DNA of 64,000 nucleotides from Escherichia phage MN04: sequence record MT129654.1. One strand, given 5' to 3'. Below the pieces are notes generated by a model, which was given only the letters and a program-made list of their open reading frames with translations, was not told where the DNA came from and searched no databases. The position numbers were made by a program, and so were the translations under genes. Each line of letters opens with the position of its first letter. The first letter of the stretch is position 1. Positions 10,244 to 30,784 of this stretch are shown here, piece by piece.

Positions 10244-11912
10244 GTTAAAAAAAGTAACGTATAAAAATATTATGTCGGTAGGGCAGCAGCCCATTACAAT
10301 CCAACTTGACAAGGTCCAAAAGACCTTAGTCACTGGTAAAAATGGTGCAGGGAAATCAACATTCCTTGAAGCTGTAACATTTGCTCTGTTCGGTAAGCCT
10401 TTTCGTGATGTTAAGAAAGGGCAGTTGATTAACTCAAGTAACAAGAAAGACCTTTTGGTCGAACTGTGGATGGAATATGATGGCAAAGAATACTATATCA
10501 AACGCGGGCAAAAACCCAACGTTTTTGAAATCTCTTGTGACGGTGAACGTCTTGATGAATCTGCCAGCAGTAAAGACTTCCAAGCGGAATTTGAACAGCT
10601 TATCGGAATGTCCTATGCAAGCTTCAAACAAATTGTCGTACTCGGCACAGCTGGATATACCCCTTTTATGGGCCTATCCACTCCTGCAAGAAGAAAACTC
10701 GTCGAAGACCTGTTAGAGGTTTCTGTATTAGCGGATATGGATAAGTTGAACAAATCTTTAATTCGTGAGACTAATAGCCAAATCCAAGTAATAGACGTTA
10801 AGCAAGATTCTATTACCCAACAAATTAAAATTTATAATGACAACGAAGAACGTCAACGTAAATTATCCGGCGAGAACGCCGCCCGCCTACAATTAATGTA
10901 TGATGAGCTCGTTAAAGAAGCCAGGACTGCGAAGGCGAGCATAGAATCCCTGACTGATGAATTACTCAATGTTATCGTAGATGATGACCCTAGCGACTCC
11001 ATGAGTGACCTGAGTAATAAAGGATTTGCAATCAAAAATGATATGGCAACCTTTACAAAGGTGGTTAAGTTATACGAAACTGGTGGTCACTGCCCTACGT
11101 GTATGCAAGGGTTAGAAGAGCACGGTAATATCCTTACTAAAATTAAGGATAAAAACTTTGAGCTTCAAAAATCTTTGGATAAGATTAATGAGCAATACCA
11201 AGAACTCAAGCTCATTAAGGACCAAGTAACCGAACAACGCAATAAAGCGTTGGCTATTAAATCTCAGATAGCTACTCATAAGCAGCAAGCCATTACTGCT
11301 GTAGAGAAAGCCAAAAAGGTTAAGGTATTAATTGACCAAGCGGCAGCTGAGTTCGTAAGTAATGCCGAAGAGATTGCTGTGCTTCAAGCAGAGCTTGATA
11401 AAATCGTCTCTACCAAATCGTCCTTGGTAATGGAAAAATATCATCGTGGAATTCTGACAGAAATGTTGAAGGATACTGGTATTAAAGGTTCCATTATTAA
11501 GAAATACATTCCTATCTTTAATAAGCAGATTAATTCTTATTTGAAGATTATGGAAGCGGACTACGTCTTTACCTTAGACGAAGAATTCAACGAGACGATT
11601 AAATCACGTGGACGTGAAGACTTTAGTTATGCTTCATTTTCACAGGGTGAGAAAGCACGTATTGATATCGCACTTCTTTTTACATGGCGTGATATTGCTT
11701 CTAAGGTATCAGGTGTTAATATCAGCACGTTAATTCTTGATGAAGTTTTTGATAGTGCCACGGATTCTGAAGGCGTTAAGAGCATTGCAACCATCTTGAA
11801 TAGCCTTGAGGATACGAACGTGTTCATTATCTCTCACCGAGACCATGACCCACAAGCTTATGGCCAACATCTTCAAATGAAGAAAGTTGGGCGATTCACG
11901 GTGTTAGAATGA
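10230..11912 (+). CDS. 46: recombination endonuclease subunit gp46 (Rad50/SbcC-like ATPase)
   Basis: Walker A GKNGAGKST, coiled-coil middle with CPTC zinc hook, C-terminal LDEVFDSATD signature; matches recalled T4 gp46. Confidence 0.9.
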   Translation: MKTFKLKKVTYKNIMSVGQQPITIQLDKVQKTLVTGKNGAGKSTFLEAVTFALFGKPFRDVKKGQLINSSNKKDLLVELWMEYDGKEYYIKRGQKPNVFEISCDGERLDESASSKDFQAEFEQLIGMSYASFKQIVVLGTAGYTPFMGLSTPARRKLVEDLLEVSVLADMDKLNKSLIRETNSQIQVIDVKQDSITQQIKIYNDNEERQRKLSGENAARLQLMYDELVKEARTAKASIESLTDELLNVIVDDDPSDSMSDLSNKGFAIKNDMATFTKVVKLYETGGHCPTCMQGLEEHGNILTKIKDKNFELQKSLDKINEQYQELKLIKDQVTEQRNKALAIKSQIATHKQQAITAVEKAKKVKVLIDQAAAEFVSNAEEIAVLQAELDKIVSTKSSLVMEKYHRGILTEMLKDTGIKGSIIKKYIPIFNKQINSYLKIMEADYVFTLDEEFNETIKSRGREDFSYASFSQGEKARIDIALLFTWRDIASKVSGVNISTLILDEVFDSATDSEGVKSIATILNSLEDTNVFIISHRDHDPQAYGQHLQMKKVGRFTVLE

Positions 11913-12100
11913 GTGATTTTATAACAGGCCAGCATTTGTTGGCCGTTCCAGAAATAAAGAGATATGTTTTAGTTAACAACTTCTCTGGAGACGAACATCT
12001 TGTTACTGAAGATTATCTCCAAAATGCTTTTAAGTCAGAATATGTTACAATCATGTCAAATAGAAATCCATCATGGTTTGTCTATGAGTACTTTGATTAA
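11909..12100 (+). CDS. hypothetical protein (63 aa)
   Basis: ORF, overlapping start. Confidence 0.4.
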   Translation: MSDFITGQHLLAVPEIKRYVLVNNFSGDEHLVTEDYLQNAFKSEYVTIMSNRNPSWFVYEYFD

Positions 12101-12102
12101 AT

Positions 12103-12126
12103 TGCTTTAAAATATTGATTTATAAT
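12103..12126 (+). promoter_or_regulatory. middle promoter candidate (MotA box + -10)
   Basis: TGCTTTA, 11-nt spacer, TATAAT, upstream of the 12157 ORF and gene 45. Confidence 0.5.
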
Positions 12127-12156
12127 ACATTTACCAACTAAATGAGAGAAAATATT

Positions 12157-12576
12157 ATGTTTGCTACTTCTAATGGCGTTACCGTTAAAGATATCCAAGT
12201 TAAAACCATCCGTACTGATTCCAACCCACATAATCAGAACCGTATCCGTAAATCATGGGTACTGAATATTGATACCGACTCTGCACGCCGATTGCAGTCT
12301 CTTCCACAAGAAACCAAGTTTATGCTGTACAGTATCATCGATAATGATGTATCTGATAAGTGGATTGAAATCATGCGTAAACACTTTAAAGATTCTTTGG
12401 CTGCAGGTGCTAAACTTGTTATCGACCGCGACGGTTCTGAACGTTTAGAAGATGATTATTGCGTCGACCCTGATGAGCAGTTGCTTGAAGCCGGTTCTAT
12501 TATTGCTTCCAAGATTCCAGAGTATATTGAATCTCTGCCTGAATCAATCCGTAAACAAATGATCGTAATTGCTTAA
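12157..12576 (+). CDS. hypothetical protein; RpbA-like by position only
   Basis: ORF between 46 and 45 behind a MotA-box promoter; no sequence-level support for the RpbA name. Confidence 0.4.
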   Translation: MFATSNGVTVKDIQVKTIRTDSNPHNQNRIRKSWVLNIDTDSARRLQSLPQETKFMLYSIIDNDVSDKWIEIMRKHFKDSLAAGAKLVIDRDGSERLEDDYCVDPDEQLLEAGSIIASKIPEYIESLPESIRKQMIVIA

Positions 12577-12601
12577 TAATTTGACTTGATAAGGAAACAT
12601 T

Positions 12602-13300
12602 ATGAAATTCTCTAAAGAAACCCTGAACATTCTTAAAAACTTCTCTGGTATTAACCCAGGCATTATGCTTAAACCAGGTAACACCATTCTGACCCGATCT
12701 GTTACCGGTGCAAGTTATGGTGAAGCTACTGTAAGTGATACCTTCGATATCGAAGCAGCAATCTATGATTTGAATGGCTTCTTAAGTATTCTGTCTTTGG
12801 TATCGGAAAGTGCTGAAGTTTCGGTAAGTGAAGACCAAACCACGTTAATTATTAAAGACCAACGTTCAACAATTAAGTGGCCTATTGCTGACCCAAGCAC
12901 AATCGCATTCCCAAGTAAAGCTATTCCGTTCCCTGTGGCTGAAGTTATTTTCGACCTGAAAGCCGAAGATTATCAACAGTTGATGCGTGTGTCCTCTGGT
13001 CTGAGTATTGATACATTTGCAATCACTGTAGACGATGGTAAAATTGTTATCAACGGTTATAAACAAGTCGACGATAAAGAATTAACTCGTCCATTGTATT
13101 CTCTGGTCGTGGCTGACCATGATGGTCCTGACTTTAAGTTCATCATTAACAAAACTAATATGAAAATGATGCCAGCCGATTATCATGTGTTGTTATGGGC
13201 GCGCGGTGAAGGCCAGGATGCTCGATTTGCAGCTAAGTTTGAAGGTACACAAGCTTCTTACGTATTAGCTATGGAAGCAGGCTCAAGCCACTCGTTCTAA
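12602..13300 (+). CDS. 45: sliding clamp gp45
   Basis: MKFSKETLNILKNFSGINPGIMLK... matches recalled T4 gp45 (about 228 aa). Confidence 0.9.
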   Translation: MKFSKETLNILKNFSGINPGIMLKPGNTILTRSVTGASYGEATVSDTFDIEAAIYDLNGFLSILSLVSESAEVSVSEDQTTLIIKDQRSTIKWPIADPSTIAFPSKAIPFPVAEVIFDLKAEDYQQLMRVSSGLSIDTFAITVDDGKIVINGYKQVDDKELTRPLYSLVVADHDGPDFKFIINKTNMKMMPADYHVLLWARGEGQDARFAAKFEGTQASYVLAMEAGSSHSF

Positions 13301-15551: not shown

Positions 15552-18263
15552 ATGCAAGAATTCTATTTGACAGTCGAACAAATCGGTGATAATATTCTCG
15601 AACGTTACATCGATAAAAATGGTAAAGAACGTAGTCGTGAAGTTCCTTACAAGCCTACAATGTTTATGCATGCCAACCCAGAGCAAGCCGTAAAATATAT
15701 TGACATCTACGGTAAGGGCTGTGTTAAGAAAGAATTCGATTCAATGCGCGATGCTTCTCAGTGGATGAAGCGCATGGACGATATGGGTCTCGAAGCCCTT
15801 GGTATGGACGACTATAAATTAGCCTATTTGTCTGATACCTATCGTAAAGAAATCAAGTATGATTCTTCCAAGATTCGTATTGCTAACTTCGACATCGAGG
15901 TAACATCTCCTGATGGATTCCCTGAACCTGCTCAGGCTAAACATCCTATCGATGCCATTACTCACTACGACTCGATTGATGATAAATTCTATGTATTTGA
16001 CCTTTTAGTTTCACCTTATGGTACGGTCGAAGAGTGGTCGATTAAAATCGCTGAGAAACTCCAAGACGAAGGTGGTGACGAAGTTCCACAAGAAATCATT
16101 GACAAAATCGTTTATCTTCCGTTTAATTCTGAAGAAGAAATGATGCTTGAGTATCTGAATTTCTGGCAACAGAAAACTCCTGTGATTTTGACTGGATGGA
16201 ATGTTGAATCATTTGACGTGCCATACGTTTATAACCGTCTTAAAAATCTGTTTGGCGAGAACACTGCTAAGCGATTAAGCCCACATCGTAAGACTCGTGT
16301 TAAAGTTATCGAGAATATGTACGGTGTTCGTGAAATTATTACACTGTTCGGTATCTCTGTTCTGGATTATATCGACCTTTATAAAAAATTCAGCTTTACC
16401 AACCAGCCTTCTTATTCTCTGGATTATGTTTCTGAATATGAATTGAAAGTAGGTAAGTTGAAATATGATGGTCCTATCTCCAAGTTACGTGAGACGAACC
16501 ACCAACGATATATTTCCTATAACATTATCGACGTATATCGTGTTGTACAGATTGATATGAAACGCCAGTTCATTCTTCTGAGTTTGGACATGGGTTACTA
16601 TGCCAAGATGCAGATTCAGTCGGTGTTCAGTCCAATTAAGACTTGGGACGCTATTATCTTTAATAGCCTTAAAGAACAGGGTAAAGTTATTCCTCAGGCC
16701 AAATCGCATGCGGTTCAACCTTATCCGGGTGCTTTCGTTAAGGAACCGATTCCTAACGCGTACAAATATGTAATGAGTTTCGACCTTACATCTCTGTACC
16801 CGAGTATCATTCGACAAGTGAATATAAGCCCAGAGACCATCGCAGGGACATTCGCTAACGCACCGATACATGAATATATTGCCGGAACTGCTCCGCGTCC
16901 TAGCGACACCTACAGTTGCTCTCCTAACGGCATGATGTACTATAAAGACCGTGATGGTGTGATTCCTACAGAAATCACGAAGGTGTTCTTACAGCGTAAA
17001 GAACATAAAGGTTATATGCTTGCAGCTCAACGTAACGGTGAGTTAATTAAAGAAGCATTAGAAAATCCTAATCCGTCTGTTGATAGCCCACTGGATATCG
17101 ATTATCGTTTCGACTTCTCTGACGAAATCAAAGCCCAGATTAAAAAATTGTCAGCATCTTCTTTAAAAGAAATGTTATTCAAAGCCGAACGTACTGAAGT
17201 CGCAGGTATGACTGCTCAGATTAACCGTAAGTTGCTTATCAACTCCCTTTATGGTGCACTTGGTAACGTATGGTTCCGTTACTATGACCTCAGGAACGCA
17301 ACTGCAATCACATTGTTTGGTCAAATGGCCCTCCAATGGATTGAACGTAAGGTTAACGAATATCTGAATAGCGTGTGTAAGACTGAAAACCAGAAGTTCG
17401 TGCTTTATGGTGATACCGACTCCATTTATGTTAAGGCTGATGCAATTATCAATAAAGTAGGCGAAGATAAATTCCGTGATACTAACCACTGGGTTGACTT
17501 CTTAGATAAATTTGCACGTGAACGTATGGAACCAGCTATTGATGCAGGCTTCCGTGAGATGTGTGAATACATGAACAATAAACAGCACTTGATGTTCATG
17601 GACCGAGAAGCTATCGCTGGTCCTCCACTTGGTTCTAAAGGTCTTGGTGGATTCTGGACAGGCAAGAAACGTTATGCACTGAACGTTTGGGACATGGAAG
17701 GTACTCGTTATGCCGAACCACACTTGAAAATCATGGGTCTCGAAACCCAGAAATCAAGTACACCTAAAGCGGTTCAGAAAGCACTGAAAGAATGCATCCG
17801 TCGTATGCTTCAAGAAGGCGAGGCCTCTTTGCAAGAGTATTTCAAACAGTTTAATAAGGAATTTAACGAATTAGACTATGTAAGCATTGCTGCAGTATCC
17901 AGTGCTAACAACATTGAGAAATATAATGAAGGTGGTTTCCCTGGTTCTAAATGTCCGTACCACATCAAAGGTTGCTTAGCTTACATGCGTGCTTCTGCTG
18001 GTGATTTGACAATGCCTCGAATCGTTGATGGTGAAAAGGTATATGTACTGCCACTTAAAGAAGGCAACCCGTTCGGTGAAGCTTGTATGGCATGGCCGTC
18101 AGGTATTGAACTTCCGATTCAGATTCGTGACCAAGTCCTCCGTTGGATGGACTACAACGTACTGTTCCAAAAGACCTTTATCAAACCTCTGACCGGTTTT
18201 ACTGAGTCTGCTAAAATCGACTACGAGAAAAAAGCAACATTATTTGACATGTTCGACTTTTAA
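15552..18263 (+). CDS. 43: DNA polymerase gp43 (family B)
   Basis: 903 aa from ATG 15552 (MQEFYLTVEQIGD...); exo motifs FDIEV and YNIID, pol motifs DLTSLYPSII and YGDTDS; very close to recalled RB69 gp43. The track start 15492 is an in-frame upstream extension. Confidence 0.95.
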   Translation: MQEFYLTVEQIGDNILERYIDKNGKERSREVPYKPTMFMHANPEQAVKYIDIYGKGCVKKEFDSMRDASQWMKRMDDMGLEALGMDDYKLAYLSDTYRKEIKYDSSKIRIANFDIEVTSPDGFPEPAQAKHPIDAITHYDSIDDKFYVFDLLVSPYGTVEEWSIKIAEKLQDEGGDEVPQEIIDKIVYLPFNSEEEMMLEYLNFWQQKTPVILTGWNVESFDVPYVYNRLKNLFGENTAKRLSPHRKTRVKVIENMYGVREIITLFGISVLDYIDLYKKFSFTNQPSYSLDYVSEYELKVGKLKYDGPISKLRETNHQRYISYNIIDVYRVVQIDMKRQFILLSLDMGYYAKMQIQSVFSPIKTWDAIIFNSLKEQGKVIPQAKSHAVQPYPGAFVKEPIPNAYKYVMSFDLTSLYPSIIRQVNISPETIAGTFANAPIHEYIAGTAPRPSDTYSCSPNGMMYYKDRDGVIPTEITKVFLQRKEHKGYMLAAQRNGELIKEALENPNPSVDSPLDIDYRFDFSDEIKAQIKKLSASSLKEMLFKAERTEVAGMTAQINRKLLINSLYGALGNVWFRYYDLRNATAITLFGQMALQWIERKVNEYLNSVCKTENQKFVLYGDTDSIYVKADAIINKVGEDKFRDTNHWVDFLDKFARERMEPAIDAGFREMCEYMNNKQHLMFMDREAIAGPPLGSKGLGGFWTGKKRYALNVWDMEGTRYAEPHLKIMGLETQKSSTPKAVQKALKECIRRMLQEGEASLQEYFKQFNKEFNELDYVSIAAVSSANNIEKYNEGGFPGSKCPYHIKGCLAYMRASAGDLTMPRIVDGEKVYVLPLKEGNPFGEACMAWPSGIELPIQIRDQVLRWMDYNVLFQKTFIKPLTGFTESAKIDYEKKATLFDMFDF

Positions 18264-18325: not shown

Positions 18326-18562
18326 ATGGAAGCTTTAATCGTTAGTGCTGGTGTTTTAGGATTTGGTTCTCTGGTTATTATGTTCATTGGTTACTTTTTA
18401 CCATGGATTCTGGCTCTTCTGCGAGGCACTCGTAGCAATGTTGGAATCTTCTTCCTTAATCTCCTGTTAGGATGGACTATGATTGGTTGGGTAGTGGCTT
18501 TAATCTGGGCTATCGTCGCTGAACGTAAATCAAACGCACAAATCATTATCGTTAAACAATGA
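18326..18562 (+). CDS. small two-TM membrane protein; Imm-like by position
   Basis: 78 aa with two hydrophobic helices, directly downstream of 43 where T4 has imm; no sequence-level confirmation. Confidence 0.4.
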   Translation: MEALIVSAGVLGFGSLVIMFIGYFLPWILALLRGTRSNVGIFFLNLLLGWTMIGWVVALIWAIVAERKSNAQIIIVKQ

Positions 18563-18703
18563 AGATAATTATTTTATTTCTTATAATGGCTGCCTTTACC
18601 ATTTATTGGGCAGTGGCAATTCCTCCAATGATTCCAACATTAATCATGGGATGGATTATTCTTATAGCACAAATTAAGTATAACTGTTTTAATTGAGGAT
18701 ATT

Positions 18704-19204
18704 ATGAAAAAGTTAATTATCGCAATGAGTATGCTCCTATCAGGTTGCGCAGTCCAATACGGTGATGCAGTTTCGGCTGATGAAGTTGGTAAAGCTCGTA
18801 TCGCAGCTGAACAGAAACAATTCGACGGCGAAATGAAATTCCGTGCCGGTTCTGGACTTGTGTATACCCGAGCTAATAATCAATGTGGTAATAACTGTGC
18901 AAAATATGCTCAAAGGGAAATCGAATTCCAACGTGAACAAGAGTCTAAGCGTGAAGCGGTACTAGCCAAACACCAGGCAGAAATGAAGCGCCAAGATGAT
19001 TTGTACAAAAAGCAGAAACTGTATTCTATGTGTGTAAACCATATCAATTTACAGATTTCTGTCCATGAGGCTCGTTATTACGAAATGCTCGAAACCGAGA
19101 GCTTCGATAAGGCTCGTGATTATAAGAAACAAATCAACAAGCTTAAGACCAAAGTGCCTGCTGCAGTAGAACAGTGCATGGAATACGGTAAAGATAAGAT
19201 TTAA
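18704..19204 (+). CDS. putative lipoprotein (166 aa)
   Basis: Signal peptide with lipobox LLSGC. Confidence 0.5.
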   Translation: MKKLIIAMSMLLSGCAVQYGDAVSADEVGKARIAAEQKQFDGEMKFRAGSGLVYTRANNQCGNNCAKYAQREIEFQREQESKREAVLAKHQAEMKRQDDLYKKQKLYSMCVNHINLQISVHEARYYEMLETESFDKARDYKKQINKLKTKVPAAVEQCMEYGKDKI

Positions 19205-19264
19205 GCAATAGAAATTTATTAAAAATAGTGTATAATGTACCTACATTCACTTGAGGAACAGATA

Positions 19265-20938
19265 ATGAAAAAGGTTGTTATTTTAGGCGCAGGTCTTGGC
19301 TCACGGTTGTATCCAATTACTAACGAAATCCCGAAGGTATTGGTTAACTATAAACAACATACGGTATTAAAGCATTTGTATGATTTGTATAGTAACCAAT
19401 CAGATGAAATTATTCTGGTTATTCACAGCAAATTTAACGACCTCGTTAAAGGCTATATTAAATCCATTAACATGATTACTGGTGATAAGCCTAAATTCAC
19501 TATTCGTAACGTTGATGTTGCTAATGGTTCAGCTCATGCTATCGATTGCATTGCCGAAGATATCATTGGCCATAACGTCCTGTTTAACTGGTGTGACATC
19601 ATTCCTGAAGGTCATAAAGTTGAGTGGGGTAACGACTACTGTTATACCTATGGAACTGACTGTCGTTTTACATTTGAAGAACCGTACTTACGTGAAATTG
19701 GCACTGGTGGTGGCGTAGTTGGTTTATATCAGGTGGCTAATTGGACAGGTTTCGACCGTTCTAATTACGGTGAAGACCTTGCTGATAACCTGGATTCAAT
19801 GGTCTATTTGACTGAACGTAAACTGGACTTTGTAGTTGATGTCGGTGACAAATTGAAACTGGCTAAGGCCCATGAAGATTCTGAAATTAACCGTGAATTT
19901 AATAAATTAGAATTCACCGAGAATCTGGCTATTAAAGTACCAACTAACGAATTAGGTAAAGAAATTCAATCTAAAGAAATCAATTGGTATAATTCTATTG
20001 ATTCTGAATTCGTTCCTAGCATTGTAGACTTTTCTCCAGGCGAATTCATTAAAATGGAACGTATCTTTGGTCGGACCATGGCAGATGCCTACCGGTTTAT
20101 GTCCAAAGAAACTAAAGTCCTCATGGTTTATAAGGTCATTAGTGCATTACGTTCATTCGGTGGAACTATTGATAATCCGTCCGATGAACAATGGTATTCC
20201 GATGTTAAGAAAGAAGTATTGGACAAGGTCCTTATTCGTAATGCTTCTATTGCCGGATTGATTGAAGGCTTTGCTCCACAAGGCATTACCCATGTTAACG
20301 ATTTCAAAGTAGGCGACCCTGAAAAACTTCTCCGCCATGCACTAGAAATTCTGTCTGAACATAAAGAACCGTACCAACTTATTCATGGCGACCCACACTA
20401 CAGTAATATTATGCTGTCGGACGAAGGTGATATTAAAATCATCGACCCACGTGGTTATTTCGGTAATAGTTCTAAAGGCCCTGCGATTTATGATGAAGCT
20501 AAGGTGCTTTATTCTATCGATGGCTATGACAAATTTAACTCAGACCCTCTATGGGGTGGATTAACCCGTAACGGAACTCGTGTATTCGTTGATATTGAAA
20601 AGGTTATGCCTTTAGACGATATCCCTATGTGCACATTTAAGCACAAGCTCTGGATTGCTGTTATTTGGATGGCTCTGGCAGGTTACTTTAAGAATAACCC
20701 TCTGAAAGCTCTGGGTGCTTATTATAACGGTTTGTACCAACTGAGTGTGCTGCTGAAGCGGCATCCTCGTAAGCGTAAGCTTATTACAGGTGAATTTGTC
20801 GATGAAGTTCGTGACCCTATCACGGCCCAAATTATTACTCGTTGTCCTGATAAGTGGGTTTTGCTTGACCAGGAAACTGGTGTAAAATATAAACCTACAG
20901 GTTCTACTGAACTCCACAAACAATGGAAGAAAATTTAA
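19265..20938 (+). CDS. bifunctional nucleotidyltransferase / APH-choline-kinase-like kinase fusion
   Basis: N-terminal ILGAGLGSRLYPIT (sugar-1-P/LicC-type nucleotidyltransferase G-x-G-x-R motif); C-terminal LIHGDPHYSNIM...IIDPRGYFG (Brenner kinase motif plus metal-binding DxG). Function inferred from motifs only. Confidence 0.6.
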   Translation: MKKVVILGAGLGSRLYPITNEIPKVLVNYKQHTVLKHLYDLYSNQSDEIILVIHSKFNDLVKGYIKSINMITGDKPKFTIRNVDVANGSAHAIDCIAEDIIGHNVLFNWCDIIPEGHKVEWGNDYCYTYGTDCRFTFEEPYLREIGTGGGVVGLYQVANWTGFDRSNYGEDLADNLDSMVYLTERKLDFVVDVGDKLKLAKAHEDSEINREFNKLEFTENLAIKVPTNELGKEIQSKEINWYNSIDSEFVPSIVDFSPGEFIKMERIFGRTMADAYRFMSKETKVLMVYKVISALRSFGGTIDNPSDEQWYSDVKKEVLDKVLIRNASIAGLIEGFAPQGITHVNDFKVGDPEKLLRHALEILSEHKEPYQLIHGDPHYSNIMLSDEGDIKIIDPRGYFGNSSKGPAIYDEAKVLYSIDGYDKFNSDPLWGGLTRNGTRVFVDIEKVMPLDDIPMCTFKHKLWIAVIWMALAGYFKNNPLKALGAYYNGLYQLSVLLKRHPRKRKLITGEFVDEVRDPITAQIITRCPDKWVLLDQETGVKYKPTGSTELHKQWKKI

Positions 20939-21321
20939 TGTCGCATCGAGTAGAAAATAAGCCACATTTATGTTTTGATATCGATAACACAATCACGATT
21001 TGGAACCATGACCGTGATTATGAGAACTTTAAACCGGACACCGAAATGGTGTCCATGATTAATAAGCTTTATGATGAAGGGTACGAGATTACATTGTTCA
21101 CCGCGCGTGGCATGACTTCATGTGGCCCAGGTCGAATCTTGGTTGAAGTAGTTCCTGCATTGGTTAAGAACCTTGAAAAGATTGGATTGAAATATCATAA
21201 TCTGCTTACACATAAGCCGAGTTATACTTTTATCATCGATGACCGAGCAATCCGTCCCGACCACTTTAAAGAAATGGTTCGTGAAGGAACTCTTGATAGT
21301 TATAAGGCCTATCATCCATGA
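20938..21321 (+). CDS. HAD-superfamily phosphatase-like protein
   Basis: LCFDIDNTIT (HAD motif I DxDxT) and TLFTARG; small KdsC-sized protein. Confidence 0.5.
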   Translation: MSHRVENKPHLCFDIDNTITIWNHDRDYENFKPDTEMVSMINKLYDEGYEITLFTARGMTSCGPGRILVEVVPALVKNLEKIGLKYHNLLTHKPSYTFIIDDRAIRPDHFKEMVREGTLDSYKAYHP

Positions 21322-21854
21322 ATCCAAAAATCATTGTTATAGACGGCCCGGATAATTCCGGGAAGTCCACTTTAATTAAAAATCTGTTATCCAATAAGAA
21401 ATACCGCCTTATTGATTTTCCTAAAAAGATTAATGGTAAGTGTATTTCATTAGGAACTGATAACGATAAGGCTTTAGTTGAAACTCTGTATAAGTTTTTA
21501 GACCCTAATTTCGTTTATATCCTTGACCGTGGTTATCCAAGTAATATTGTTTACTCAGGATTCCTTCGTGGTGAAATGGACCCTTATGTAGAACTGGAAG
21601 ATTGGAAAGGGTTTAAATCTGAATTTAACGTTATCGAGGTTATTTTAACTCGCAATCCATTAGACGAAGACTTCGAAGACGACCTTATTAAATTAACCAA
21701 AGATGAGTTCAACCTAACTATCCGGCAATACGAAACATGTTTTGAAAACGTGTTTAAAATCTTAAATCATGACGGCCATAATAATTTGCTTAATGTTGAT
21801 ATGGTAGAATTAAAACGTCTGAACGAATATATTGAAAATAAGGTGAATAGATGA
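21318..21854 (+). CDS. P-loop small-molecule/nucleotide kinase-like protein
   Basis: Walker A IVIDGPDNSGKSTL at the N-terminus; 178 aa. Confidence 0.5.
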   Translation: MNPKIIVIDGPDNSGKSTLIKNLLSNKKYRLIDFPKKINGKCISLGTDNDKALVETLYKFLDPNFVYILDRGYPSNIVYSGFLRGEMDPYVELEDWKGFKSEFNVIEVILTRNPLDEDFEDDLIKLTKDEFNLTIRQYETCFENVFKILNHDGHNNLLNVDMVELKRLNEYIENKVNR

Positions 21855-22549
21855 AACACATTACCGCTGTTAGTTTTGAAAATGCATTTAAACAAATGAA
21901 CGAAGAAATCCTGGAAGCTCCACAGTTTGCAGTTGATTCTCGTATCGGACGTTGTTATGAAATTGGTTCTGCTTCGGTAGAAGTACTGGATGCAAGCACC
22001 TATAAATTCACCGATCCTCGTATTAATCGTATTAGTTATGAATATGCCGAATCTTTCTGGAAGTTTATGATTTCTGGTGGTACTGACGCCGCCGAAGCAT
22101 TTAAGGAATACCCTAATGTTGCTAAGTTCATTGATAAGCCGAAAAGTGACGTATTGCCTGCAAACTTCAACACTTTCTATGGACCTCGAATTGTGGCCCA
22201 ACTCCCAGCCTTACTTAAAGAGCTTAAAGAAAAGCCTAACTCAAGACGCGTTGTGTTCCAGATTCTCCAAGAACAAGACCAAGCCCTCCTTGATTCTGAC
22301 GAATCCTTAGAATATCCTTGCACCGATTCGGTAACGTATTATATTCGTGATGGACGTCTGTATGCACACACTCATATGCGTTCACAGAACTGTGCTATTG
22401 TTATGCAGCTGGATTTCTATCTGCAGGGTAAACTGATGGCATTTATTGCTGAACAGTGCGGTGTCGGTTTAGGTACATATTCCCACACCATGGTAAGTGC
22501 ACACGTGTTTGAACGTGATTTTGACTACGTCCGAGGTTTCCTGAAATGA
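21851..22549 (+). CDS. 42: thymidylate-synthase-family pyrimidine hydroxymethylase (divergent dCMP hydroxymethylase, gp42 position)
   Basis: NSRR and CTDSVTYYIRDGRL...MRSQN align to the catalytic-Cys region of recalled T4 gp42, at lower identity than the neighbouring core genes. Confidence 0.6.
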   Translation: MKHITAVSFENAFKQMNEEILEAPQFAVDSRIGRCYEIGSASVEVLDASTYKFTDPRINRISYEYAESFWKFMISGGTDAAEAFKEYPNVAKFIDKPKSDVLPANFNTFYGPRIVAQLPALLKELKEKPNSRRVVFQILQEQDQALLDSDESLEYPCTDSVTYYIRDGRLYAHTHMRSQNCAIVMQLDFYLQGKLMAFIAEQCGVGLGTYSHTMVSAHVFERDFDYVRGFLK

Positions 22550-23439
22550 GTTTGTTTATCGTTCCTATTTTCAGTATGCGTAGTTACGAAACAGGTGAAT
22601 ATGCCGTCCTTAAGGACGGCAATTTTCAACTCCATTTAAATCGTGCTCGTCCAGGTGATTATCTGGCTTATCCTAGAAATTCGAGCGATATCAAAGAATG
22701 CATTGAATTATTCCCAGATCTGAATTTCGTACCACTTTGGTATAAAGAAAATGCTTATGAAACCCGTAAACATTTCTGGTCTGAAAATGAGTTTGTAGTC
22801 GATTCACTAATCGAATACTACGATTGCTCAGGACTGGTAACCGATATCACTGGTTACGATGGTGCTCATACTGTACAATTCAACTTTAATATCACAATGG
22901 ACCCTGAAGTTCCTCGTTATTATATCGACGAGTTCATTGATATTGATGTGGCTTCAGTTGAACGTTCACTTTATACTACAGTCCTGAATCAATGCCAGAA
23001 AGACGTCTTGGTGTCACGAGGTGCATCCTCTGATAAGATTTTTGTAGACCAAAAGGTAATTAATCCTGCAGTAATTGAGCGTTACTCTGAAGGTCTAGCG
23101 CCTATTAAAATTGATGGTATTTTCCATCCATTCCGTATTTCAGATAAGTGTTATCAATTCGAAAGAGTTGTAGACCAAGCTGCCGCTGAAGGTGCTCGTC
23201 TTTATATCACCGATCCGAATGATTCATTTAAGCGCGAAGACTATCGTCCTGATGTAGAGATTATTAAATTCAAACCAAGTAAGGTTGAATATTATCAAAT
23301 TCTGAAATCAAGACCACATATCATTTATCATGAGAACCCAGGTTTAGTATTCCATCCTGGTCTGGCTGAATTCATTTATTTCGGTGCCAATATTCATTCT
23401 GAATACGAAATGCCACGTTATGAGGACGTAGTATGCTAG
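22546..23439 (+). CDS. hypothetical protein; candidate DNA glycosyl/modification transferase (occupies the T4 beta-gt position)
   Basis: 297-aa ORF between the gp42-like gene and uvsX; functional call is by synteny only, no recognised motif. Confidence 0.35.
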   Translation: MSLFIVPIFSMRSYETGEYAVLKDGNFQLHLNRARPGDYLAYPRNSSDIKECIELFPDLNFVPLWYKENAYETRKHFWSENEFVVDSLIEYYDCSGLVTDITGYDGAHTVQFNFNITMDPEVPRYYIDEFIDIDVASVERSLYTTVLNQCQKDVLVSRGASSDKIFVDQKVINPAVIERYSEGLAPIKIDGIFHPFRISDKCYQFERVVDQAAAEGARLYITDPNDSFKREDYRPDVEIIKFKPSKVEYYQILKSRPHIIYHENPGLVFHPGLAEFIYFGANIHSEYEMPRYEDVVC

Positions 23440-23642
23440 GTCCTCTATTGCTTTTTATAGGTTTGTTATTATTCTCTTTCGGAGCCTTGCTATTACTAGT
23501 GTGGCTCGAGAAACGAGAAGTTCGGAAGATAGTCGATAAGGCTATCAACCGAGGAATTAAGTAATGCTGTAGCTGTGAAGTGATATAATTACCCTATCTT
23601 AAAACGTGAGAAAAAATATAATGATGCCTATGGAAAAATATA

Positions 23643-30262: not shown

Positions 30263-30784
30263 ATGGCTCATTTTAATGAATGTTCTCAACTGATTGCCGG
30301 TGCCGATAAAGCTGAAGAAGCTTATTTTAATGCTCTGATTCACGAAGATAAAGACCCTCTGCAGGTTATGCTTGATATGCAGAAATCTTTGCAGGTTCGT
30401 TTAGCTAAAGATAAGCCTGAATATAATCGTCATCCTGATGATTTGGCCACTGCGGGTGAAGTTGTCGATTGGCTTCGCAACCAGAAAGATTATATTGATG
30501 ACGAATTCCGTGAACTTCTGACTTCTCTTGGTGGTATGAGTAATGGTGAAAAAGATGCATCTGCAGTATGGAAGCCTTGGAAAGCTCAACATGCTGAACG
30601 TCGTGAAACCCTGATTAACGATTTGTCTCCTGAAGACCAGCTCGAAATTAAATTCGAAATGATTGATATTCTGCACTTTGTTCTGAATATGTTCCAGGGT
30701 CTTGGACTGACCGCTGAAGAAATCTTTAAACTGTATTACCTTAAAAATGCCGAGAACTTTGCTCGTCAAGACCGAGGTTATTAA
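30263..30784 (+). CDS. 56: dCTPase/dUTPase gp56 (MazG-like)
   Basis: 173 aa from ATG 30263; at the T4 gene 56 locus; function from recalled homology. Confidence 0.75.
   Translation: MAHFNECSQLIAGADKAEEAYFNALIHEDKDPLQVMLDMQKSLQVRLAKDKPEYNRHPDDLATAGEVVDWLRNQKDYIDDEFRELLTSLGGMSNGEKDASAVWKPWKAQHAERRETLINDLSPEDQLEIKFEMIDILHFVLNMFQGLGLTAEEIFKLYYLKNAENFARQDRGY

Follow-up and report, generated by a model that had tools for sequence, protein, structure and literature searches.

A Dhakavirus counterpart of the RB69 cytosine modification cassette: a predicted five-gene route to arabinosyl-5-hydroxycytosine DNA

Escherichia phage MN04 carries, between its imm and uvsX genes, a five-gene cassette whose probable outcome is DNA with arabinosyl-5-hydroxycytosine in place of cytosine, a reading to which we assign a probability of roughly 80%. 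The cassette lies at positions 19265 to 23439 of the window, by which we mean the whole 64,000-nucleotide stretch of sequence record MT129654.1 that was analyzed. MN04 is a Dhakavirus, and the whole window is colinear with the genome of phage JS10. All five genes are orthologous to genes of phage RB69, with protein identities between 38 and 80%. A preliminary description of this DNA, made from the sequence alone, had connected the cassette with RB69 and arabinose, and orthology to the RB69 genes, together with published work on them (PMC13326640), bears this connection out. The cassette is real and was correctly located, and its pathway is already known from related phages through work published in 2025 and 2026.

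The modified base is indicated by the fourth gene (21851 to 22549, + strand), which encodes a thymidylate synthase homolog of 232 amino acids. This protein matches the Pfam family Thymidylat_synt (4.8e-14), shares 80% identity with RB69 gp48, and aligns with the PDB entries 9IQU, 9IQC, and 9IR2 at 2e-126 and 80% identity (231 amino acids for 9IQU, the crystallized enzyme of HY126). In the numbering of E. coli ThyA, its active site retains C146 and carries W80A, L143E, D169N, G173V, and N177D, the last of which goes with cytosine preference. R126, R127, R166, and S167 are also conserved, and the protein agrees with RB69 gp48 at 18 of the 18 positions checked. Lee et al. used an in vivo assay, 18-O2 labeling, and cofactor analysis to demonstrate that RB69 gp48 makes 5-hydroxydeoxycytidine monophosphate (5-hydroxy-dCMP) with flavin, and the exchange of Asp169 for Asn, validated on nine further enzymes, marks this synthase activity (PMC13326640). 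From these orthologs, the window protein is predicted to be a flavin-dependent 5-hydroxy-dCMP synthase.

The preliminary description had instead called the protein a divergent hydroxymethylase, which would correspond to the deoxycytidylate (dCMP) hydroxymethylase of T4, with arabinose or another sugar placed on a hydroxymethylated pyrimidine. This proposal can draw on a sequence similarity to T4 gp42 that is weak (about 25% identity across 159 amino acids; PDB 1B49, 8e-6), on several GenBank records that name the protein a deoxycytidylate 5-hydroxymethyltransferase, and on the first account of RB69 DNA, which in 2018 described it as arabinosyl-hydroxymethylcytosine (PMC6024577). Nevertheless, T4 gp42 retains W80 and D169 and has aspartate at positions 169, 177, and 143, while the window protein has neither W80 nor D169, shares W80A and D169N with the hydroxylases, and is not orthologous to gp42. 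It shares 80% identity with flavin-bound enzymes whose product was established by 18-O2 labeling. Moreover, tandem mass spectrometry and nuclear magnetic resonance have since corrected the RB69 structure to an ether-linked 5-hydroxycytosine (PMC13326640, PMC13390438), which contradicts a hydroxymethylase for the orthologs. We therefore regard a hydroxymethylase as very improbable; the D169N/W80A/L143E/N177D pattern, being that of RB69 gp48, points to 5-hydroxycytosine rather than a hydroxymethyl-pyrimidine as the acceptor of the sugar.

The predicted donor of the sugar would come from the first two genes. The first (19265 to 20938, + strand) encodes a fusion protein of 557 amino acids, with a nucleotidyltransferase domain at approximately residues 1 to 200 and an APH/choline-kinase-like kinase domain at approximately residues 205 to 557, as evidenced by Pfam matches to NTP_transferase (PF00483; 3.3e-8) and APH (PF01636; 1.2e-5). 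It matches PHROG 4098 over its full length (6e-269) and aligns along its full length with RB69 gp53 and gp52 at 41 to 44% identity. Across the RB69, CBH8, and DLP1 proteins, identity is 41 to 46% over more than 550 amino acids, and in all of these phages the HAD gene lies directly downstream. In the fusion, none of the residues that are invariant among 33 family members has changed (G10, R14, L15, K24, D111, H374-G-D376, N381, and D394-P-R-G397). The protein also has the architecture of the AfhE family, which we compared through HY126 AfhE, RB69 gp52:53, and DLP3 gp82, that is, a single chain with an N-terminal GxGxRL...K signature and C-terminal HGDxxxxN and DxxG signatures. A PDB search for the family turned up no structure with a bound ligand. 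HY126 AfhE has been described as an arabinose-5-phosphate 1-kinase and a uridine diphosphate (UDP)-arabinofuranose pyrophosphorylase (He et al. 2026, as summarized in PMC13326640). By analogy, the window fusion is predicted to be a bifunctional enzyme of this type.

The second gene (20938 to 21321, + strand; 127 amino acids, or 132 from an alternative start at 20923) encodes a protein with a small HAD fold and the DxD motif FDIDNT. It is 62% identical both to RB69 gp51 and to the HY126 protein in PDB entry 9IQW (5e-54), and it also matches PDB entry 1XPJ (4.5e-12). A match to the capsule-biosynthesis phosphatase family TIGR01689 of NCBIfam (1e-14) falls under the cut-off of that family. The label "phosphoheptose isomerase," which PHROG 1238 and RefSeq attach to this protein, is a misnomer. 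For HY126 only, and as summarized in PMC13326640, AfhF is reported to remove the 5-phosphate from arabinose-1,5-bisphosphate in a Mg-dependent reaction, and the orthologous window protein is, by analogy, a predicted AfhF-type 5-phosphatase. According to the same summary of He et al. (2026), arabinose-1,5-bisphosphate is the product of the HY126 kinase, from which the HAD enzyme subsequently strips the 5-phosphate. The published order is thus kinase, phosphatase, and nucleotidyltransferase, and free sugar is not involved. The preliminary description had the fusion and the HAD protein yield a nucleoside diphosphate-pentose from arabinose-5-phosphate, and this part stands; its suggestion that the HAD enzyme acts first to free the sugar does not, given that in HY126 it acts after the kinase on the bisphosphate.

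Three metagenomic proteins of 922 to 946 amino acids (P0185, P0196, and P0211; locus L015, 14 to 2854) lend the sugar branch independent support. In them, a HAD domain, a SIS isomerase, a nucleotidyltransferase, and an APH-like kinase are joined in one chain, so that one polypeptide holds all of the sugar activation branch. Such fusions tie the family to the product of a SIS isomerase, such as arabinose-5-phosphate. One of the three adjoins a sulfotransferase gene.

The fifth gene (22546 to 23439, + strand) encodes a protein of 297 amino acids that is 65 to 69% identical to RB69 gp47 and gp46. Sequence searches of Pfam, NCBIfam, and the PDB gave no match for it. Structure prediction alone revealed a GT-B glycosyltransferase fold, which agrees with the transferase proposed in the preliminary description. 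The gene lies immediately 3' of the synthase gene, and the same adjacency is found in Klebsiella, Acinetobacter, Serratia, and metagenomic loci. In a comparison with RB69 gp46:47, DLP3 gp79, and the single arabinosyltransferase of phage Thanatos, the protein is the ortholog of RB69 gp46:47 and DLP3 gp79 ("arabinosyltransferase 1"), and arabinosyl transfer is predicted for it by analogy. It is also the sole candidate DNA glycosyltransferase detectable in the genome. A tblastn search with T4 beta-gt returned no match in the window or in the complete JS10 genome, and the 297-residue gene shares only its genomic position with beta-gt. The same searches ruled out a separate gp42 ortholog and an alpha-gt gene.

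The third gene (21318 to 21854, + strand) encodes a P-loop kinase of 178 amino acids that belongs to the family of RB69 gp45 and DLP3 gp78 and is 38% identical to gp45. Modeling suggests a thymidylate-kinase fold, and this model is built on a shallow alignment because a word-indexed protein search gave just nine relatives. The protein scores under the curated family thresholds for assignment as a bona fide dTMP kinase. It may possibly help to raise 5-hydroxy-dCMP to the triphosphate.

Taken together, these predictions outline two converging branches. In the base branch, gp56 would convert dCTP to dCMP and so remove dCTP; its gene (30263 to 30784, + strand), a pathway partner outside the cassette, encodes a dCTPase/dUTPase that is 91% identical to RB69 gp56 over 173 amino acids. 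The thymidylate synthase homolog would hydroxylate dCMP at C5 with flavin and O2, after which the phage deoxynucleoside monophosphate kinase gp1, encoded beyond the window, and perhaps also the cassette kinase would produce the triphosphate for incorporation into DNA by the phage polymerase. In the sugar branch, the kinase domain of the fusion would phosphorylate arabinose-5-phosphate at C1, the HAD phosphatase would take off the 5-phosphate, and the nucleotidyltransferase domain would join arabinofuranose-1-phosphate and uridine triphosphate to give UDP-arabinofuranose. The GT-B enzyme would then place one arabinose on the 5-hydroxyl.

Genes that extend this pathway in other phages are absent here. 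Searches by tblastn of the window and the complete JS10 genome gave no match for an arabinose-5-phosphate isomerase of the SIS family (RB69, DLP1, and CBH8 queries), a second arabinosyltransferase (RB69 gp3 and the DLP1 glycosyltransferases), a U32-like gene, or RB69 gp49. The Dhakavirus cassette thus lacks both the phage isomerase and the second arabinosyltransferase of the complete RB69-type cluster. Counts across phage records database-wide agree with this picture, with 352 records for the first transferase, 276 for the isomerase, and 212 for the second transferase, and the Dhakavirus cassette therefore represents the smallest form of the cluster seen. Because a second transferase is absent, a mono-arabinosylated product is predicted. 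E. coli always makes arabinose-5-phosphate, via KdsD and GutQ, for the synthesis of 3-deoxy-D-manno-octulosonic acid (Kdo). As no phage isomerase is present, the arabinose-5-phosphate would have to come from these host enzymes.

Several points weigh against arabinosyl-5-hydroxycytosine as the product. First, the literature searched yielded no analysis of Dhakavirus DNA by chemical means, and for the findings of Mahler et al. (Cell Host Microbe 2025) and He et al. (Nat Chem Biol 2026) we rely on summaries by others (PMC13326640, PMC13390438, PMC13216743). Second, no ortholog has been made to carry out the first arabinosyl transfer in vitro, and the authors of PMC13326640 (section 26) cannot tell whether this step takes place on a mononucleotide or on DNA. 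Third, the homolog of the 297-residue protein in the Shewanella phage Thanatos reportedly behaves as a UDP-xylose pyrophosphorylase in vitro (PMC12838424). Fourth, the fusion (41 to 46% identity) and the small kinase (38 to 44%) have drifted much farther from their counterparts in the phages proven to carry arabinose than have the other three proteins (62 to 80%), and they diverge more than the Acinetobacter phage versions do from RB69 (52 to 65% for the fusion). This divergent clade coincides exactly with the clade that has no isomerase.

The second and third of these points could be taken to mean that the 297-residue protein is a second nucleoside diphosphate-pentose pyrophosphorylase and that some other protein moves the sugar. 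The Thanatos protein in question, TH1_063, has 300 amino acids and is encoded directly 3' of a thymidylate synthase homolog, as in the window, and single orthologous enzymes gave no arabinosyl transfer to 5-hydroxycytosine DNA in vitro (PMC13326640). Nevertheless, the fusion already supplies a pyrophosphorylase domain, and the JS10 genome offers no other glycosyltransferase among the candidates searched. Also, the reversibility of GT-B enzymes could explain the Thanatos assay. A pyrophosphorylase role for the 297-residue protein is quite improbable, and we retain arabinosyl transfer as its predicted function.

The divergence of the fusion and the small kinase raises another question, namely, whether the cassette follows the same logic with a different sugar or donor. 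If the fusion had been respecialized in the isomerase-less clade, which unites the Dhakaviruses with some Klebsiella phages, toward another plentiful pentose phosphate of the host, such as ribose-5-phosphate, or toward another nucleotide, Dhakavirus DNA would carry a pentose isomer other than arabinofuranose. Relative to isomerase-carrying phages, the two proteins form a long branch, with identities of 41 to 47% for the fusion and 38 to 44% for the small kinase and of 81 to 85% within the clade. The SIS isomerase is lacking in all three clade members examined, and the gene order is altered, such that the kinase gene follows the HAD gene rather than the transferase gene. In addition, the defense system PD-T4-3 hits a Dhakavirus and spares a Mosigvirus (PMC12409345). 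The other enzymes of the pathway tell against such a change: the transferase, including the donor-binding C-terminal half of its GT-B fold, is 65 to 74% identical to that of RB69, and identity is 62 to 70% for the HAD enzyme. The family-invariant residues of the fusion are all retained, and the constant supply of arabinose-5-phosphate in E. coli means that loss of a phage isomerase requires no change of sugar. Common descent alone can account for the correlation between codivergence and isomerase loss. A different sugar or donor is accordingly unlikely, and arabinofuranose remains the predicted pentose.

We see a small chance that the isomerase-less clade is more than a trimmed RB69 pathway. 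In that case, the fusion would have altered specificity, for another pentose or for the same pentose with another donor, and/or the small kinase would phosphorylate a glycosylated nucleotide. If the kinase acted in this manner, the first sugar would be added before replication and not on DNA. As a separate observation, the fusion and the small kinase have codiverged and lie close together in isomerase-less phages (the window versus loci L003, L011, L012, and L013), and isomerase-carrying phages have the small kinase placed after the transferase gene. Also, PD-T4-3 defends its host from the Dhakavirus CLB_P2 and from Tequatroviruses but not from a Mosigvirus (PMC12409345). Conceivably, this spectrum might reflect one-sugar versus two-sugar DNA modification.

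The annotations of this region in the public records of JS10, JS98, UP19, CLB_P2, and dhaeg are inconsistent and partly wrong. The fusion is labeled "hypothetical" or "capsule biosynthesis protein," the predicted hydroxylase is labeled "thymidylate synthase" or "deoxycytidylate 5-hydroxymethyltransferase," and the GenBank and RefSeq labels also include "thymidylate kinase" and "dCMP hydroxymethyltransferase." The imm gene of JS10 carries the label gene 43. In NCBIfam, none of the five cassette proteins scored above a curated cut-off. If the names "capsule biosynthesis protein" and "phosphoheptose isomerase" in GenBank and PHROG were taken at face value, along with the resemblance of the HAD protein to TIGR01689, the cassette could be seen as auxiliary genes of host takeover that serve capsule or lipopolysaccharide sugar metabolism and are unconnected with DNA. 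Such a role is hardly credible. The genes share one tightly coupled operon, in the 42/beta-gt slot, with a predicted dCMP-modifying enzyme; the arrangement is kept across many T4-like genera; and orthologs have been tied experimentally to DNA arabinosylation (PMC13326640), which contradicts it for those orthologs. One further set of records deserves mention. Contigs PQ561406.1 and PQ561417.1, both deposited as "phage Ec2-ASingh," hold a Dhakavirus-type cassette (98% identity to the window) together with a Mosigvirus-type isomerase and second transferase. The presence of both types under one phage name indicates that the sample probably held two phages.

Along the locus, the gene order is DNA polymerase, imm, two small open reading frames (ORFs), the five-gene cassette, and uvsX; at the equivalent position, T4 has imm.1-imm-42-beta-gt-segA-uvsX. 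The preliminary description had placed five codirectional genes in the 42/beta-gt slot of T4, and both the ORF coordinates, all on the + strand, and the flanking genes match. The motifs it had listed were all found, namely, ILGAGLGSRLYPIT, HGDPHYSNIM, and IDPRGYFG in the fusion, FDIDNTIT in the HAD protein, GPDNSGKST in the small kinase, and NSRR and CTDSVTYYIRDG in the synthase homolog. The Pfam matches of the fusion and the synthase homolog and the PDB matches of the synthase homolog and the HAD protein all lie well outside the range of chance. At the DNA level, the 4.2-kb region shares 98% identity with phages JS10 and JS98 and is covered nearly end to end in 51 phage records.

All four internal junctions of the cassette overlap, the first as TAATG and the other three as ATGA, and these shared start and stop codons make it almost certain that the five genes form one operon that is translated as a single unit. 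Pattern scans of the region for promoters and terminators gave matches no more numerous than in shuffled sequence, so the operon structure rests solely on the overlapping codons. The best sigma-70-like match between positions 18200 and 23800, TAGAAA-16-TATAAT (19209 to 19236, + strand; 10 of 12 positions), lies 5' of the first gene and is suggestive only. The start of that gene at 19265, as given in the preliminary description, is favored by a ribosome-binding site, GAGGA (19253 to 19257, + strand), 7 nucleotides upstream and by the alignment with RB69 gp53 and the annotation of UP19, which both begin there. Starting at the ATG at 19235 would give a longer ORF, but this codon falls within the TATAAT box, and the start was rejected.

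Three small ORFs surround the cassette. Between imm and the cassette lies an ORF of 166 amino acids (18704 to 19204, + strand) with a lipoprotein-type N terminus, MKKLIIAMSMLLSGC. It matches PHROG 1754, to which no function is assigned, and is kept in Dhakaviruses. Given its place beside a superinfection immunity gene, it might encode a further exclusion or envelope protein. On either side of the cassette is a very small hydrophobic ORF. The first (18559 to 18696, + strand; 45 amino acids) is homologous to RB69 gp54, with 56% identity, and the second (23433 to 23564, + strand; 43 amino acids), which overlaps the transferase stop codon, carries an annotation solely in phage CLB_P2.

Sugar-coated cytosines allow T4-like phages to evade restriction enzymes, CRISPR nucleases, and DNA glycosylases, and they become targets of type IV restriction. 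Because the modification governs both escape from and targeting by defenses, knowing which one a therapeutic coliphage carries helps to predict its host range and the ease with which it can be engineered. For the window itself, the practical value lies in a corrected annotation, and the scientific value is small. Nevertheless, the minimal five-gene form, with its predicted reliance on arabinose-5-phosphate from the host, looks like a system well suited to establishing which genes suffice.

Parts of this picture have appeared before. Petrov et al. (2010) flagged JS98 as a phage with a gene 42 homolog and without glucosyltransferases (PMC2993671), and Thomas et al. (2018) noted a homolog of the fusion in the Dhakavirus IME08 (PMC6024577). 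More recently, Lee et al. (NAR 2026) extended 5-hydroxydeoxycytidine biosynthesis to the Dhakaviruses by synteny and named them in a comparative figure (PMC13326640).

Among known systems, the 42/beta-gt/alpha-gt module of T4 makes glucosyl-hydroxymethylcytosine and occupies the same genomic slot. T4 combines a dCTPase, a thymidylate synthase family enzyme that acts on dCMP, kinases and a polymerase, and GT-B transfer from a UDP-sugar, and the window cassette shares this pathway logic. The chemistry is predicted to differ, however: T4 hydroxymethylates the base with folate and uses UDP-glucose from the host, whereas the window phage would hydroxylate the base with flavin and make its own sugar donor. 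The window transferase also has no sequence similarity to either beta-gt or alpha-gt of T4.

The Acinetobacter phages DLP3 and DLP1, which carry tri-arabinosyl-5-hydroxycytosine, likewise have the fusion, the HAD phosphatase, the synthase, arabinosyltransferase 1, and a kinase of thymidylate-kinase fold, but they add an isomerase and two further glycosyltransferases, none of which is present in the window. The Klebsiella phage vB_KpnM_Biddle_MM4 and a metagenomic T4-like contig (L014) both lack the isomerase, as the window does, and have its gene order of fusion, HAD phosphatase, kinase, synthase, and transferase, with 81 to 87% identity to the window for the first four proteins. They differ from the Dhakavirus version in having a U32-like gene between the kinase and synthase genes. 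In L014, this interval (10826 to 12610) holds a U32-peptidase-like gene and a chorismate-mutase-like (CM_2) gene, and the latter is likewise absent from the Dhakavirus version.

Finally, in the Mosigviruses RB69 and HY126 (gp45 to gp55, plus gp3), enzymes of all five families likewise lie between DNA polymerase and uvsX, with the same hydroxylase signature and a GT-B transferase. The likeness is closest for the synthase (80%), the transferase (65 to 69%), and the HAD phosphatase (62%), whereas the fusion is just 41 to 44% and the small kinase just 38% identical to the window proteins. RB69 and HY126 have an isomerase (gp55), the U32-like gp50, gp49, and a second arabinosyltransferase (gp3), none of which is found in the JS10 genome, and their kinase gene follows the transferase gene, whereas that of the window follows the HAD gene. 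Their product is mono- or di-arabosylated, and that of the window phage is expected to be mono-arabosylated.

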